Origin: Gammaproteobacteria bacterium
Lineage (GTDB): Bacteria; Pseudomonadota; Gammaproteobacteria; DSM-19610
NCBI GenBank assembly: GCA_011321775.1
Contig: DROT01000127.1
Span: 1,144 to 65,143 of the forward strand
Direction: 5' to 3'
Length of the DNA: 64,000 nt
Shown here: in pieces, positions 4,175 to 59,578 of the stretch
Numbering within the stretch: position 1 is the first letter of the stretch
Layout: each line of letters starts with the position of its first letter
Position numbers and translations under genes: made by a program
The notes under the pieces: model-generated
The model's database searches: none
What the model was told of the DNA's origin: nothing
Seen by the model: only the letters and a program-made list of their open reading frames with translations

Positions 4175-5076
4175 GGGCTCTCTGGCGGTCCGTCTTCGGT
4201 CGTCTTCGGCGTCCCGGCAGGCGCGGTCATTTCCGCCGGCGCCGGCTGCGGCAGTTCCTCCGGCCACACCAGCAACACCTCGCGGCTGCGGTCCAGCATG
4301 GCTCGCGGGCGCGCGAGCACGTGGGAGAAGGCGCGCCCGGGATCCTGCTCCACCAGCGTCACCTCGGCCACCGGGTAGCCGGGCGGGAAGCGACCGCCGA
4401 GGCCGGAGGTGACCAGCAGGTCACCGACGCGGATGTCGGCGTTGTTGGGAATGTGCGGCAGCTCCAGCCGGTCGATGGCGCCGGTGCCCAGCGCAATGGT
4501 GCGCAGGCCGTTGCGGTTGACCTGTACCGGGATGGCGTGCGCGGCGTCGGTGATCAGCATGGCCGTGGAGGTGAAGGGGCCGACGTGGATCAGCTGGCCC
4601 ATGACCCCCTGGCTGTCCAGTACCGGCTGGCCTTCGAACAGGTGGTCCAGGGAGCCCTTGTTGATCTCCACCTGGTGGCGGTAGGGGTCCATGTCGACCG
4701 ACAGCAGTTCGGCGATCAGCATCGGGCGCTTGCCGACCTGGAAGGACGAATCCAGCAGTGCGCGCAGGCGGCGGTTCTCGGCCTCCAGGGATTCCAGTTT
4801 CTGCAACTCGCTGTTGAGCATCAGCAACTGGGTGTGGAGGGCGGCGTTGTCCTCCTGCAGTTCACGCCGCGTCGCCAGCGACTCCCGGAACCACTCGCTG
4901 GTCGAACCGGGCAGGTCCACCAGCCACTGCAGGGGATAGACCACCACCGACAACGCGCCCCGCAGGCTCTCGAGATGGTGCTGCCGGTGGTCGACAGTCA
5001 TCAGTACGATGGAGAGTAGTACCAGTCCGAGCAGGCGTGCCAGCAGCGGCGGACCCGCTGTAAAGATCTGCTTGAT
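4171..5076 (-). CDS. mreC: Rod shape-determining protein MreC (start probably ATC 5076; ATG 5001 would cut off the TM helix)
   Basis: ENRRLRALL, GDLLVTSGLGGRFPPGYPV. The frame is open upstream of ATG 5001 as IKQIFTAGPPLLARLLGLVLLSIVLM, matching the MreC N-terminus. Confidence 0.9.
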   Translation of the reverse strand: MKQIFTAGPPLLARLLGLVLLSIVLMTVDHRQHHLESLRGALSVVVYPLQWLVDLPGSTSEWFRESLATRRELQEDNAALHTQLLMLNSELQKLESLEAENRRLRALLDSSFQVGKRPMLIAELLSVDMDPYRHQVEINKGSLDHLFEGQPVLDSQGVMGQLIHVGPFTSTAMLITDAAHAIPVQVNRNGLRTIALGTGAIDRLELPHIPNNADIRVGDLLVTSGLGGRFPPGYPVAEVTLVEQDPGRAFSHVLARPRAMLDRSREVLLVWPEELPQPAPAEMTAPAGTPKTTEDGPPESP

Positions 5077-18133: not shown

Positions 18134-18208
18134 TGGGGCGTCGCCAAGCGGTAAGGCACTGGGTTTTGATCTCAGCATACGCAGGTTCGAATCCTGCCGC
18201 CCCAGCCA
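18134..18208 (+). tRNA. tRNA-Gln (TTG)
   Basis: TGGGGCG/CGCCCCA acceptor stem, anticodon arm CTGGG-TTTTGAT-CTCAG, GGTTCGAATCC, encoded CCA. Confidence 0.97.
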
Positions 18209-18407
18209 GAGTGAAAAGGGTGCTGGAGACACCGGTGTAGAGAAATCCACCGGGCGTTGTTCCGGGGCGGCAGGGTTCGAACCCCAAGGTTCGACAAATC
18301 CGCGTAGCGGATTTGAACGGCGAAGCCGGCCCCGAAGGGGCAAGGGGCGCAGCCCCGCAGTAATCCTGCCGCCCCCGCCAGAGTGGAAAAGGGTTCTGGA
18401 GACGCCG
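18190..18407 (+). repeat. tRNA-linked duplication: 46-bp direct repeat (tRNA 3' end plus trailer), period 172, enclosing a hairpin cassette
   Basis: 18190-18235 versus 18362-18407 differ by 2 substitutions and 2 single-base indels. Confidence 0.9.
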
Positions 18408-18442
18408 GGGCGGCTGGTCTGATCATATACGGGTAACAGAGC

Positions 18443-19417
18443 ATGCAACGCATTCCTCCATCGGATGCAGACAGTCGCCTCATGGTGTTCTCGGGCAACG
18501 CCAACCCGCCGTTGGCGCAGTCCATCGCCAACTATCTGCGCATGAATCTCGGCAAGGCCGTGATCAGCGAATTCAGCGATGGCGAGATCATGGTGGAGAT
18601 CATGGAGAACGTCCGCGGCCGGGACGTCTTCGTGGTGCAGCCGACCTGTGCGCCGACCAACAACAACCTCATGGAGTTGCTGGTCATGGTGGATGCGCTG
18701 AGGCGCGCTTCGGCCGGGCGTATCACCACTGTCATACCCTATTTCGGGTATGCGCGTCAGGACCGGCGACCGCGTTCCGCACGCGTGCCGATCACCGCCA
18801 AGGTGGTAGCCAAGATGATCAGTGACGTCGGTGCCGATCGCGCGCTGACGGTCGATCTGCACTCGGAGCAGATCCAGGGTTTCTTCGATGTGCCGGTGGA
18901 CAACGTGTATGCCTCGCCGATCCTGCTGGGCGACGTGTGGCGCCAGAAGTATCCGGATCTGATGGTGGTGTCGCCCGATGTGGGTGGCGTGGTTCGGGCA
19001 CGGGCGCTGGCGAAACGACTCGATGATGCCGACCTGGCCATCATCGACAAACGCCGTCCCAAGGCCAACGTCGCCAAGGTGATGCACATCATCGGCGAGG
19101 TGGAAGGACGCAGTTGTGTGCTGGTGGACGACCTGGTCGACACGGCCGGTACCCTGTGCCAGGCAGCGGCCGCGCTCAAGGAACACGGTGCGCGACGGGT
19201 GGTGGCCTATTGCACCCACCCGGTGCTGTCGGGCAATGCCATCAACAACATCAGTGATTCCGAGCTGGATGAACTGGTGGTGACGGATACCATCCCCTTG
19301 CGACCGGACGCGCAGGCCTGTACCCGCATCCGGCAGCTGAGTATTGCGGAGATGCTTGCGGAGGCGATTCGTCGCATCAGCAACGAGGAATCCGTCAGTT
19401 CGATGTTCATGGACTAG
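18443..19417 (+). CDS. prs: Ribose-phosphate pyrophosphokinase
   Basis: [49 protein letters not shown]. Confidence 0.98.
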
Positions 19418-19439
19418 GATCGCTCAGCCGGTCCGGTCG

Positions 19440-19554
19440 AAAGGGAGGCGGATCAGCGTCTCCCCCGCTTTTGCGGACCCGCCGTTTCAGGCGGGTCCGC
19501 CTGGTCTCCCTTGGTCGCGAGGGAGTTTTTTGTGCAACACTGGAGTAGTACGTC
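19440..19554 (+). promoter_or_regulatory. Probable rplY (L25) structured leader
   Basis: Stacked hairpins gcggacccgcc/ggcgggtccgc and ctccct-tggtcgcg-agggag directly before rplY. L25 is known to autoregulate through its 5' UTR in gammaproteobacteria. Confidence 0.55.
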
Positions 19555-20190
19555 ATGTCTATATTTGAACTCGAAGCCGAGTCGCGTTCCGACACGGGGA
19601 AAGGTGCGAGCCGCCGCCTGCGTCGGACCGGCAAGATACCCGCCATCGTTTATGGCGGCGAGCAGGACCCGGAGGCGATCAGCCTCTCCCACAGCGAGAT
19701 CCTCAAGCGTCTGGACCACGAGGCCTTCTATTCGCATATCCTCACGCTGAGCGTGGACGGCAAGCAGACCAAGGCCGTGTTGCGCGACATGCAGCGCCAT
19801 CCGGCGAAGCCGATCATCATGCACATGGATTTCATGCGCGTGGACGAGAGCAAGCCGATCCGCGTGCACGTGCCACTGCATTTCGTCGGCGAGGACAAGG
19901 CGCCCGGTGCCAAGGCCGGTGGTCTGGTAACCCACGAGATGATCGAAGTGGAGCTGGACGTGCTGCCGAAGCATCTGCCGGAATACATCGAGGTGGATCT
20001 TTCCGGTCTGAATGTCGGCGAATCGCTGCACCTGAGTGACCTCAAGCTGCCGGAGAGCGGCGTCCTGGTGGAACTGGCGCGCGGCGAGGGGCACGATGCC
20101 GCGGTCGTTTCCATCCACGCACGTCGGGGCGCTGCCGCCACCGAAGGCGAGGAAGCCGAGGGCGGTGAGGAAGCCGCCGCCGAAGACTGA
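19555..20190 (+). CDS. rplY: 50S ribosomal protein L25/Ctc (long form)
   Basis: [38 protein letters not shown]. Confidence 0.97.
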
Positions 20191-20201
20191 CGTCGCGGCG
20201 G

Positions 20202-20777
20202 GTGCCGTCGATCGAGCTCATTGTCGGCCTGGGCAATCCCGGACCGGAGTATGAACCAACCCGGCACAACGCCGGGTTTTGGTTTGTAGACCGGCTGGCG
20301 GAACATTGCCGGCAGACCTTCCGCAGCGAATCGCGATTCCGGAGCGAAGTGGCGCGATGCCGGCTGGATGACAGCGAATGCCGGCTGCAGAAGCCACAGA
20401 CTTTCATGAACCGCAGTGGCCAGGCGGTAGCGGCGCTGGCGCGTTTCTTCCGCATCGAAACGCCCCGGATCCTGGTGGTCCACGACGAGCTGGACCTGCC
20501 GCCGGGCACCATTCGCCTGAAGACGGGCGGTGGTCACGGGGGGCACAACGGTCTGCGCGATCTGATTGCCCACCTGGGGCGCGATTTCCATCGCCTGCGG
20601 ATCGGCATCGGGCACCCGGGGCATCGTGACGAGGTGGTGGACTATGTCCTGCACCGGCCGTCGAGACAGGATCGCAGCCTGATAGAGGCCTCGATCGAGG
20701 ATGCGCTGACGGTGATGCCCGAGGTGGTGGCCGGCCATTTCGAGCGCGCGATGAACCGCTTGCACGTTCGCAAGTAG
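20202..20777 (+). CDS. pth: Peptidyl-tRNA hydrolase
   Basis: LIVGLGNPG..Y..TRHNAGF, KPQTFMNRSG, HDELDL, GGHGGHNGL. Confidence 0.97.
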   Translation: MPSIELIVGLGNPGPEYEPTRHNAGFWFVDRLAEHCRQTFRSESRFRSEVARCRLDDSECRLQKPQTFMNRSGQAVAALARFFRIETPRILVVHDELDLPPGTIRLKTGGGHGGHNGLRDLIAHLGRDFHRLRIGIGHPGHRDEVVDYVLHRPSRQDRSLIEASIEDALTVMPEVVAGHFERAMNRLHVRK

Positions 20778-20818
20778 GAGTTGCCCCGCGGCACCATTTA
20801 TCTTGAAGGACTACCAGC

Positions 20819-21910
20819 ATGGGATTCAAATGTGGAATCGTGGGCCTGCCGAACGTCGGCAAGTCGACCCTGTTCAACGCCCTGACGCGGGCCGGCATCC
20901 AGGCCGAGAACTACCCGTTCTGTACCATCGACCCCAATGTCGGCGTGGTGCCGGTGCCGGATCCGCGTCTCGATCGCCTGGCGGAAATCGTCAAGCCGCA
21001 ACGCGTGCTGCCCACCACCATGGAGTTCGTCGATATCGCCGGCCTGGTGGCCGGTGCCTCGCGCGGCGAGGGCCTGGGTAACAAGTTTCTCGCCAATATC
21101 CGCGAGACCGATGCCATCGTGCACGTGGTGCGCTGTTTCGAGAACGAGAACGTGGTGCACGTGGAAGGACGCATCGATCCCCTGTCGGACATCGAGGTGA
21201 TCGATACCGAACTGGCGCTGGCGGATCTGGAGACGGTCGAAAAGGCGCTGCTGCGGGTGAGCAAGGTGGCCAAGAGCGGAGACAAGGAGGCACGCGCCAG
21301 GTTGGCCGTGCTGGAGCCGCTGCAGGCGCACCTGGCTGCGGGGCACATGGCACGTACCCTGGAGCTGGATGAGGAGGCGCGGCTGCTGCTGCGCGAGCTG
21401 CACCTGCTGACCCTCAAGCCGACCATGTACATCGCCAATGTGGCGGAGGACGGATTCGAAAACAATCCCAATCTCGACGCCGTGCGCGAACTGGCGCGGA
21501 AAGAGGGGGCCGAGGTGGTGCCGGTCTGTGCCGCCATCGAGGCCGAGCTGCTGGAACTCGACGAGGAAGAGCAGCAGGCCTTCCTGGAGGAACTGGGACT
21601 CGATGAACCCGGTCTCAACCGCGTGATCCGGGCCGGCTACCGGCTGCTGGGTCTGCAGACCTATTTCACCGCCGGCGTCAAGGAAGTCCGTGCCTGGACC
21701 GTGCCGGTCGGTGCCACCGCCCCCCAGGCAGCCGGCGTCATCCATACCGATTTCGAAAAGGGGTTCATCCGCGCCGAGGTGACTTCCTACGAGGACTTCA
21801 TCGCCTGCGGTGGCGAACAGGGTGCCCGCGAGGCCGGCAAGCTGCGGCTCGAAGGCAAGGATTACCTCGTCCGCGACGGCGACGTCATGCACTTCCGCTT
21901 CAATGTGTGA
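20819..21910 (+). CDS. ychF: Redox-regulated ATPase YchF
   Basis: [44 protein letters not shown]. Confidence 0.98.
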
Positions 21911-21911
21911 C

Positions 21912-21940
21912 TGGACAGGAGGAGCCCGAATCCCTACAAT
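21912..21940 (+). promoter_or_regulatory. Sigma70 promoter for tRNA-Met
   Basis: TGGACA-N17-TACAAT plus a GC-rich discriminator, about 45 nt before the tRNA. Confidence 0.65.
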
Positions 21941-21986
21941 CTCGCCTCTTTCCGCAACCGCCACGCGGCGCGGAACACCGAATAAT

Positions 21987-22063
21987 GGCAAGGTAGCTCA
22001 GTTGGTTAGAGCACAGCACTCATAATGCTGGGGTCGGCGGTTCGAATCCGCCCCTTGCTACCA
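21987..22063 (+). tRNA. tRNA-Met (CAT), elongator type
   Basis: GGCAAGGTAGCTCAGTTGGTTAGAGCA...CAGCA-CTCATAA-TGCTG...GGTTCGAATCC...CCTTGCTACCA. No fMet GGG/CCC anticodon stem. Confidence 0.95.
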
Positions 22064-22319
22064 GGCATGAAAAAGCCCGCACAAGCGGGCTTTTTCATGC
22101 CTGGTAGCAAGGGGTGTTACGGAGAATCGGCTCCGGTTCGAGCGCTTGCGCAGCAAGCACAGACGAAGCCGCGCAGCGGCGGAGCCCGGAGGGGCGCGAC
22201 GGCCGCGAGGCCGTCGCGATCAATCCGCCCCTCGCCGTTGCAGCGTAACAGCCCGCACAAGCGGGCTTTTTCATGCCTGGTAGCAAGGGGTGTTACGGAG
22301 AATCGGCTCCGGTTCGAGC
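22045..22319 (+). repeat. tRNA-linked duplication: perfect 30-bp hairpin that includes the tRNA 3' end, plus a 70-bp identical direct repeat (period 176)
   Basis: 22051-22080 pairs with 22085-22114. 22074-22143 is identical to 22250-22319. AATCCGCCCCT occurs at 22045 and 22222. Confidence 0.92.
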
Positions 22320-22365
22320 CGGCGAACGCCCCGGCCATCCGGTCGTCGTTTCCGGCTGCGCGGGG

Positions 22366-22388
22366 TTCGCGGGCAAGCCCGCTCCTAC
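22366..22388 (-). repeat. GTAG-family REP palindrome
   Basis: Minus strand reads GTAGGAGCGGGCTTGCCCGCGAA: a GTAG tetranucleotide followed by a GC-rich palindrome. Confidence 0.7.
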
Positions 22389-22440
22389 AGGGGGAAGGGG
22401 TGGGGCGGGTTGGGCTGGACTGTTGCGCTGCGATTCAGGT

Positions 22441-59499: not shown

Positions 59500-59578
<79 letters not shown>

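Follow-up and report, generated by a model that had tools for sequence, protein, structure and literature searches.

RtT is an RNA family that, to our knowledge, has been annotated since 1991 and still has no known function. It corresponds to Rfam RF00391 and to the 178-bp repeats of tyrT in Escherichia coli. An RNA, rttR, has been shown experimentally to arise from a tyrT repeat unit, with function unknown (PMC3318445, PMC7542023), and changes of repeat copy between strains have been reported (PMC3318445, PMC7542023, bioRxiv 10.1101/2024.07.17.603846). In the literature on RtT we found no paper that explains the family or its host-matched arms. Here we analyze two tRNA-linked repeats, behind tRNA-Gln(UUG) and tRNA-Met(CAU), in a stretch of 64,000 nucleotides (the window; contig DROT01000127.1 of assembly GCA_011321775.1, positions 1,144 to 65,143 of the forward strand) from a Gammaproteobacteria bacterium. 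The source genome, G000, is a draft assembly of 267 contigs with 48 tRNAs. Judged from their sequence, both repeats belong to RtT as already known rather than to a new element; the novelty is in the hosts, Gln-UUG and Met of a non-enteric genus. The preliminary description of this DNA had seen in them a candidate T-loop-targeting element family and had cited the E. coli tyrT repeats as an analogy. The link was rightly drawn, but the two are in fact homologous (RF00391 and our own model are reciprocal), and the unit behind E. coli tRNA-Lys already carries the RefSeq label "RtT sRNA". The explanation that we consider probable is that the repeats are tRNA-linked structured RNA modules, inherited vertically, which grow and shrink by unequal recombination.

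Family membership, in the broad sense of RF00391, is carried by two models applied in both directions. The gathering cut-off of RF00391, 45 bits, is an operational threshold derived from an enterobacterial seed and not a biological criterion. In G000 it is exceeded behind the tRNA-Tyr of the tyr-gly-thr-tuf cluster (65.6 bits), and weaker matches are found behind tRNA-Ser(CGA) and at one contig end. RF00391 matches in 13 of 40 relatives, with Tyr, Gln-CUG, Gln-UUG, Ser and Arg-UCU as the hosts, and the orthologous Gln-UUG units of G009 (47.3 bits) and G001 (46.5 bits) lie above the cut-off. For the opposite direction we built a covariance model, R1, on an alignment (A3) of 23 units, 21 from this genus and two from other families of the class, without E. 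coli. Three G000 units were in the training set (the window Gln unit, the Tyr unit and one on contig C130), and the Met unit was left out. R1 scores the Gln unit, which was used in training, at 121.4 bits (18263-18380). The untrained Met unit is recognized over its full length (22105-22240) at 26.8 bits (E=6.6e-5) and is the second-best match in the window. In E. coli, R1 finds all four tyrT units (66-73 bits) and also that of lysQ (36 bits). Recognition is thus reciprocal, as RF00391 matches the units of the genus and R1 those of E. coli. RF00391 itself is above its cut-off at four places of E. coli K-12 (tyrT-tyrV, near proK, the lys/val cluster and behind serX), with weaker matches in the arg/ser cluster. 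One genome per species was also scanned for GGTTCGA-N60-90-AATCCGCCCCTYGC, followed by R1 and ARAGORN. This search gave tRNA-Met-linked units in a Marinobacteraceae genome (54.2 bits) and in Zhongshania aliphaticivorans (41.5 bits), both with the same layout, including the duplicated terminator, which argues that tRNA-Met is a genuine host of the family. The Met unit of the window is probably a divergent, partly decayed RtT member.

The repeat architecture noted earlier at tRNA-Gln and tRNA-Met, and its periods, were borne out by sequence inspection and repeat search (Table 1): the two loci have a common layout, host-specific flanks and a conserved GGTTCGA...AATCC frame, as expected of one tRNA-linked family. 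The complete Gln unit occupies 18263-18380, begins 55 nt past the tRNA on the same strand and belongs to an array of about 1.3 units with a period of 172-173 bp. Its inverted copy is 95% complementary to 18184-18203 over 20 nt (repeat search). In the predicted fold this arm is the 5' strand of the closing helix P1, and its terminal bases, GAACC, are the 5' strand of a second helix, P2. The minimum-free-energy (MFE) fold of the core gives the hairpins H1 (CAAATCCGC/GCGGATTTG), H2 (GGC/GCC), H3 (CCCC-GAA-GGGG) and H4 (GGGGC/GCCCC). The direct copy of the tRNA 3' end has 19 nt with one mismatch and ends in CCA. No terminator-like site was found between tRNA-Gln and its unit, nor before prs.

The Met unit begins 42 nt past its tRNA, again on the same strand, in an array of about 1.5 units with a period of 176-177 bp, and is preceded by a terminator-like hairpin. 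To one half of the perfect palindrome the tRNA contributes its final 13 nt and the terminator its 5' half; the other half is made of the terminator's 3' half and the arm TGGTAGCAAGGGG (22102-22114). A permissive Rfam scan returned, on this palindrome, only chance matches to microRNA and leader families. A hairpin GGAG...CTCC (22121-22134), immediately before GGTTCGA, substitutes for P2; the core hairpins are H1 GCTTGC/GCAAGC, H2 GCCGC/GCGGC, H3 CCC-GGA-GGG and H4 GCGACGGCC/GGCCGTCGC. Only 14 nt of the 3' copy are kept and the CCA is lost, so this feature of RtT is only partly present. A second terminator-like site (22250-22267) lies inside the second copy.

Table 1. Coordinates of the tRNA hosts and repeat parts at the Gln and Met loci, numbered from the first letter of the window.
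Feature	Positions	Strand	Basis or remark
Host tRNA-Gln(UUG)	18134..18208	+	T-loop GGTTCGAATCC; ARAGORN; Rfam tRNA 61.4 bits
X1, tRNA-Gln 3' segment (AATCC...CCA) and 27 nt trailer; direct repeat copy 1	18190..18235	+	spacing 172-173
Gln 5' arm, reverse complement of tRNA-Gln T-arm and acceptor 3' strand	18264..18283	+	inverted repeat, predicted fold
GGTTCGA, 5' edge of Gln core, 3' strand of hairpin P2	18288..18294	+	invariant in alignments A1 and A3; pattern scan
Gln core, 67 nt, four hairpins H1-H4	18295..18361	+	MFE fold; covariation in H1, H4
Direct copy of tRNA-Gln 3' end AATCCTGCCGCCCCCGCCA, begins AATCC, 3' strand of P1	18362..18380	+	repeat search
Second trailer copy (18381-18408), then 11-13 nt of truncated second arm	18381..18417	+	repeat search
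Host tRNA-Met(CAU), elongator type	21987..22063	+	T-loop GGTTCGAATCC; ARAGORN, Rfam
Perfect 30-bp palindrome, 22051-22080 / 22085-22114	22051..22114	+	inverted repeat, 30 nt, 100%
GGTTCGA, 5' edge of Met core	22135..22141	+	pattern scan, R1 alignment
Met core, 80 nt, divergent, hairpin order same as Gln	22142..22221	+	R1 match
Degenerate direct copy of tRNA-Met 3' end AATCCGCCCCTCGC, begins AATCC	22222..22235	+	93%, repeat search
Second copy of terminator, arm and GGTTCGAGC, 73 nt, 99%	22247..22319	+	array ends at 22319

Units of the family are about 120-135 nt long and share one predicted structure. P1 is the inverted copy of the last 15-20 nt of the host tRNA paired with the direct copy, and it encloses P2 and H1-H4. 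The MFE folds of single units converge on this arrangement, in which P1 closes a multiloop with P2 (GAACC/GGTTC), H1, H2, H3 (CCCC-GNA-GGGG) and H4. An alignment of 30 loci (A1) has a uniform order: host 3' end and trailer, arm, GGTTCGA, core, copy of the host 3' end. Its arm motif, GG..GGAT-GAGAACC or GGATTCGAACC, is the reverse complement of the host 3' end, and its core consensus reads CAAAnCCGC..GCGGnTTTG-AACG-(H2)-GGCCCCGnAGGGG-TGAGG..CG-AATAATCC. In A3, 92.8% of the cells are paired, and cells with changes in both partners number 101 against 29.6 +/- 4.5 in shuffles; sliding the partners as a control drops the paired cells to 33-51%. In a class-wide alignment of 51 units fitted to the model (A7), the paired fraction is 94.7% and the double changes number 241 against 73 in shuffles. 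Covariation is free in H1 and H4 and follows the host tRNA in P1, and P2 and H3 are invariant. That the cassettes share a structure, on which the earlier proposal of a family depended, is supported by covariation. GGTTCGA has two possible partners, both compatible with the alignment: the local P2 is paired in 96.5% of cells and the long-range partner given by Rfam (CGAA of H3) in 85.9%, in columns that are invariant.

Among the non-Watson-Crick cells, G.U outnumbers A.C by 58 to 13 in A7 and by 16 to 8 in A3. Such an excess would arise from selection on the fold of the tRNA-sense transcript, rather than on double-stranded DNA, and points to a sense-strand RNA under selection. The 5' arm pairs with the AT of AATCC and, in the Met unit, contains the complement of ACCA; it is thus a true reverse complement and not a pair of 5' strands from a shrunken tRNA. 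On these same two features we rejected a "minihelix", a reduced tRNA duplicate whose acceptor and T-stem would supply their 5' strands as the arm. We also ruled out a conserved CsrA-type GGA site at the loop of H3, as this loop varies (GAA, GCA, GGA, GTA).

Folding of the read-through transcripts (18134-18380 and 21987-22240) provides a different view of the arm. In the MFE folds of both loci the 3' half of the tRNA pairs with the inverted arm in a duplex of 20-30 bp, and the 5' acceptor strand of the tRNA pairs with the distal 3' copy; this is incompatible with the cloverleaf plus P1. Because the tRNA 3' half is engaged in this fold, the arm may have an effect in cis on maturation. The units could be RNA devices, close to the second idea of the preliminary description (a device controlling tRNA 3' maturation), whose arm, by pairing with the tRNA 3' half or with the downstream copy, would switch or mark the precursor (for example for RNase III, E or P) and so control 3' maturation or termination. 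The G.U bias, as a sign of selection at the RNA level, would agree with this, as would the extension of the tRNA-Met terminator by the arm into the perfect 30-bp palindrome. G010 and G012 have such a palindrome of tRNA end, terminator and arm behind tRNA-Met, without the core. However, the tRNA should fold before the arm is transcribed, and the device leaves the conserved four-hairpin core unexplained. The unit is also dispensable, since it is absent from the Gln locus in 12 of 28 genomes and from most tRNAs. We judge it quite improbable that a cis device accounts for the units, although it would be compatible with their being inherited RNA modules.

Chance does not explain the two loci. The pattern GGTTCGA-N60-90-AATCC is confined in the window to the Gln and Met loci, with three overlapping matches where 0.26 are expected, and at least three were reached in 0 of 100 shuffles. 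When the 48 tRNAs of G000 were surveyed, copies of a tRNA's own 3' end stood above background downstream of five: Gln-UUG, Gln-CUG, Met, Tyr and Ser-CGA. Behind these the inverted copy is found between +38 and +57 and the direct copy between +153 and +183; in this survey the direct copy is absent at Gln-CUG, and the inverted copy does not stand out at Ser-CGA. The rarity of the pattern in the window, together with the restriction of the copies to five tRNAs at consistent distances, argues that the loci are real. Tandem Repeats Finder reported nothing at either locus, to which it is blind because each holds only about 1.3-1.5 copies, fewer than two. The family extends to other genomes: of 300 genomes that sample the class, 117 have an R1 match (111 of 270 genera), in many cases in tandem, and the units are found mainly behind Gln-UUG, Gln-CUG, Tyr, Ser and Arg. 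The spread to other tRNAs and genomes that the preliminary description anticipated is therefore found. One could suspect an assembly artefact in the draft, given that the Met unit occurs in this genome alone within the genus. The Gln unit, however, is orthologous in many independent assemblies, and the Met unit scores with an independent structural model and has relatives behind tRNA-Met in two other genera; an artefact has practically no likelihood left.

The T-loop of the hosts is also held in common. GGTTCGAATCC is the T-loop of 12 of the 48 tRNAs of G000, all five hosts are among these 12, and it is invariant in 29 of 29 hosts checked, a figure that is partly built into the search model. 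The coincidence is suggestive.

Some further units and remnants were recorded in G000. On contig C130 (7792-7932, minus strand) R1 scores an RtT unit at 69.7 bits. No match to its 3' copy, AATCCTCCCGAGCGTGCCA, exists among the 48 called tRNAs, and the host of this unit must therefore lie past the contig end. Behind tRNA-Gln(CUG) (C184:74774-75000) the terminator, a perfect inverted arm and a mutated P2 are retained. Neither a core nor a 3' copy belonging to this tRNA was found anywhere in the assembly, and sister genomes have a complete unit there. The remnant is followed by an unrelated palindrome of about 40 bp (GCCACGGAACACACGGATGAACACGG...). In the window, a weak full-length R1 match on the minus strand at 4829-4931 (13.8 bits, E=0.11), which ends in CCACACCCA, is probably due to chance.

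Comparison between genomes provides insight on how the units are inherited. Measured from GGTTCGA to AATCC, core identity is 0.82 for the same host across genomes and 0.60 for different hosts within a genome (range 0.47-0.81), against a background of 0.59; the cores of the two tRNA-Gln isoacceptors are 0.80 identical. As identity follows the host and not the genome, the units are old residents of particular tRNA genes with no sign of recent movement within genomes. Copy number was compared at the orthologous ispE-tRNA-Gln-prs locus of 28 genomes (A4). Besides the 12 empty loci, about nine hold a single unit and G007 almost two; tandem arrays of at least three occur in G042 and G046, and four loci have decayed remnants. 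Copy number thus varies from zero to at least three, and does so between close relatives (one copy in G001, at least three in G046). The "empty" locus of G014 (contig C9, L083) has a 13-nt direct repeat of the tRNA end, GCCGCCCCAGCCA, 5 nt past the tRNA; after this repeat comes the second trailer as seen in a relative, G045. This 3'-copy remnant and second trailer argue that G014 lost its unit by deletion. Nothing downstream of tRNA-Met is conserved in the genus, where the unit is found in G000 alone.

These results bear directly on the earlier proposal of an active mobile element that targets the T-loop. In such a reading a non-autonomous, mobile or self-copying element would enter at GGTTCGA^ATCC, and its arms would be rewritten with the host as template, for example through fold-back replication or by copying the tRNA 3' end. 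Homologous cores do occur with several hosts (Gln, Tyr, Ser, Arg, Met and, in E. coli, Lys), and each time the two arms fit the host tRNA. The 5' arm, as a true reverse complement, reaches the T-loop and in Met the CCA, and the invariant host T-loop is what a target would look like, although the search model contributes to that invariance. Independent lineages show the same order X-Y-X, where X is the 3' end with its trailer and Y the arm with the core. The most suggestive case is a full copy of tRNA-Ser(CGA) in G000 (C209:40204-40515 joined to C128:1-129) that holds an RtT core exactly between GGTTCGA and ATCC. It lies upstream of the intact tRNA-Ser(CGA) with a period of 211 bp, and the contig break falls inside the repeat. 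(ARAGORN calls the split tRNA-Ser copies tRNAs.) However, G003 has a normal Ser unit whose core is 82-84% identical to that of the split copy; with such a unit, the split tRNA-Ser is explicable by a deletion from GGTTCGA to GGTTCGA after tandem duplication. The grouping of cores by host, not genome, gives no sign of recent movement, and no recombinase or other linked gene was found. The ends of the arrays do not coincide consistently with GGTTCGA in the window, in E. coli tyrT or in the genomes of the Gln-locus comparison. A target-site duplication ending at GGTTCGA was considered as well; it fits the Met array only and fails for Gln, E. coli tyrT and the sister genomes. On balance, a T-loop-targeting element is unlikely, and the claim of active mobility is not upheld.

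Polymorphism consists of tandem gain, loss and decay at resident loci, and near-identical copies at different sites within a genome did not emerge as its pattern. Two pairs of similar copies are of note. G007 has two identical RtT-like units (C6:3925-4071, L024, and C14:368671-368817, L027) whose flanks are alike for several hundred bases. No tRNA was called near either, and their 3' copy resembles a tRNA-Ser/Sec-type end; they are probably part of a larger duplicated segment. In G003, a near-identical tRNA-Ser 3' end with terminator and RtT unit is present at C82:7910-8051 (L017) and at C171:13703-13839 (L023). One of the two follows a real tRNA-Ser. Before the other there are only 16 nt of tRNA end and then unrelated DNA with small open reading frames, much as at an attR. 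No recombinase was found within +/-1.5 kb of the tRNA-less copies (L024 and L027 of G007, L017 of G003), where there are only small open reading frames without Pfam hits and a glycoside hydrolase.

Integrase scars at the T-loop, that is, the attL/attR sites of islands since lost, were weighed on the same material. T-loops are known crossover sites, and integration leaves partial copies of the tRNA 3' end. The sequence past tRNA-Met differs in every genome of the genus, and the second Ser copy of G003 has the unrelated DNA before it that an attR would have. Against this, G000 has tyrosine recombinases (PF00589) at nine places, and none of the nine is on a unit-bearing contig (C127, C241, C130, C209, C128, C184). 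The earlier statement that the window holds no integrase agrees with this count, and an association with a recombinase, which had also been raised, finds no linked gene. The tRNAs that do have integrase neighbors (Phe, Arg-CCU and Asn) have no unit. The reading frames downstream of tRNA-Met are of housekeeping types (Na/Pi cotransporter, Macro-domain protein, MerR regulator and the like), and a covarying core conserved across the class is unlike random island remnants. With no recombinase on the unit contigs and ordinary genes downstream, the integrase scar was rejected; it is largely refuted and very unlikely to be the origin of either repeat.

The vertically inherited RNA module, by contrast with these alternatives, accommodates most of what is seen. 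In E. coli rttR there is an analogy for its expression: the unit would be made by transcription running on from the tRNA and released by the nucleases of tRNA maturation. Release of this kind is suggested by the tRNA-like 3' end in which each unit terminates. The Gln unit is probably expressed, as no terminator separates it from its tRNA. Placed behind a terminator and lacking its CCA, the Met unit is probably a decaying copy that would be expressed only by read-through. Amplification and loss would proceed by unequal recombination or slippage between the tRNA 3' end with its trailer and the downstream copy, and units would decay afterwards. The inverted arm could plausibly stem from fold-back (template-switch) copying across the terminator palindrome.

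Several observations weigh against this explanation. RF00391 matches the Gln unit over its full length (18254-18380, model positions 1-130) at 39.5 bits (E=4e-5), which is below its cut-off, and even at a permissive threshold it does not match the Met unit. A terminator-like hairpin precedes the E. coli lysQ unit and several Gln-CUG units, as it does the Met unit; with such terminators many copies may be poorly transcribed, which fits a phenomenon at the DNA level equally well. The excess of G.U over A.C comes from a count that ignores relatedness and rests on a model-fitted alignment. Finally, vertical inheritance does not account for how homologous cores reached different tRNAs, in each case with both arms fitted to the host. 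For this last point one could turn to T-loop targeting at the origin of the family, which we consider a long shot. RtT modules would be, or would once have been, tRNA-programmed non-autonomous elements whose core enters GGTTCGA^ATCC, whose arms are templated by the host and whose X-Y-X arrays can be lost and reinserted as circles of about 170 bp. The arms would be written by fold-back replication over the terminator palindrome or by copying of the tRNA 3' end.

Any model of RtT must satisfy a set of constraints: presence in about 40% of the sampled genomes of the class, orthologous units resident at their hosts, compensatory helices, a G.U bias in the sense strand, an arm that is a true reverse complement, the common T-loop GGTTCGAATCC and fast change of tandem copy number. 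Taken together, these speak for an RNA that is processed and ends like a tRNA, rather than for a scar left by an integrase or a transposon that is still active.

Other features lie near the two loci or elsewhere in the window. A sigma-70-like promoter match (TGGACA-17-TACAAT, 10/12) is present at 21912-21940, 47 nt upstream of tRNA-Met, and suggests that this tRNA may have its own promoter after ychF. A REP-like sequence (repetitive extragenic palindrome; GCGCGGGGTTCGCGGGCAAGCCCGCTCCTACAGGGGG) at 22358-22400 adjoins the Met array and is multicopy in several genomes of the genus (G013 and G024 among them); it is unrelated to the Met unit. The third tRNA gene that ARAGORN calls in the window is Pro(CGG), at 59502-59578.

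Comparison with known systems places the two repeats. REPs and BIMEs (bacterial interspersed mosaic elements) with their RAYTs (REP-associated tyrosine transposases) are likewise small, GC-rich, hairpin-forming intergenic repeats of variable copy number. Unlike RtT, they are dispersed, are not linked to tRNAs, have no host-matched arms and depend on RAYT. The attL/attR duplications have in common with the units a partial direct copy of the tRNA 3' end downstream and a breakpoint region in the T-loop. The units here differ in having an inverted copy and a structured core, in their length of about 170 bp and their tandem arrangement, and in that no integrase or island was found with them. A closer parallel in biogenesis is the 3' external transcribed spacer (3'ETS) of leuZ in E. 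coli, reportedly described by Lalaouna et al. in 2015 as a regulatory RNA derived from a tRNA spacer. By analogy, what is proposed for RtT would be similar, a stable RNA freed from a tRNA precursor by tRNA-processing nucleases. The leuZ type sponges through short base-pairing, and it has no tRNA-matched arms, tandem repeats or multi-hairpin core.

The closest match is RtT/rttR of E. coli tyrT-tyrV. The units lie directly downstream of a tRNA on the same strand, end in a copy of its last ~19 nt and have a 5' arm complementary to that copy. The motifs GGATGAGAACC...GGTTCGA...CCCGAAGGG...AATCC are the same, and so are the period of about 170-180 bp (178 bp in E. coli tyrT) and the fractional copy numbers. 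The trailer or terminator is duplicated past the unit, as at E. coli lysQ, where the order is 3' end and terminator, arm and core, and then 3' end and terminator again. The differences are in the hosts (here Gln-UUG and Met), in the GC-rich, non-enteric genus and in the sequence and length of H1 and H2. The window thus reveals no new kind of system, and it adds two hosts to the RtT family.

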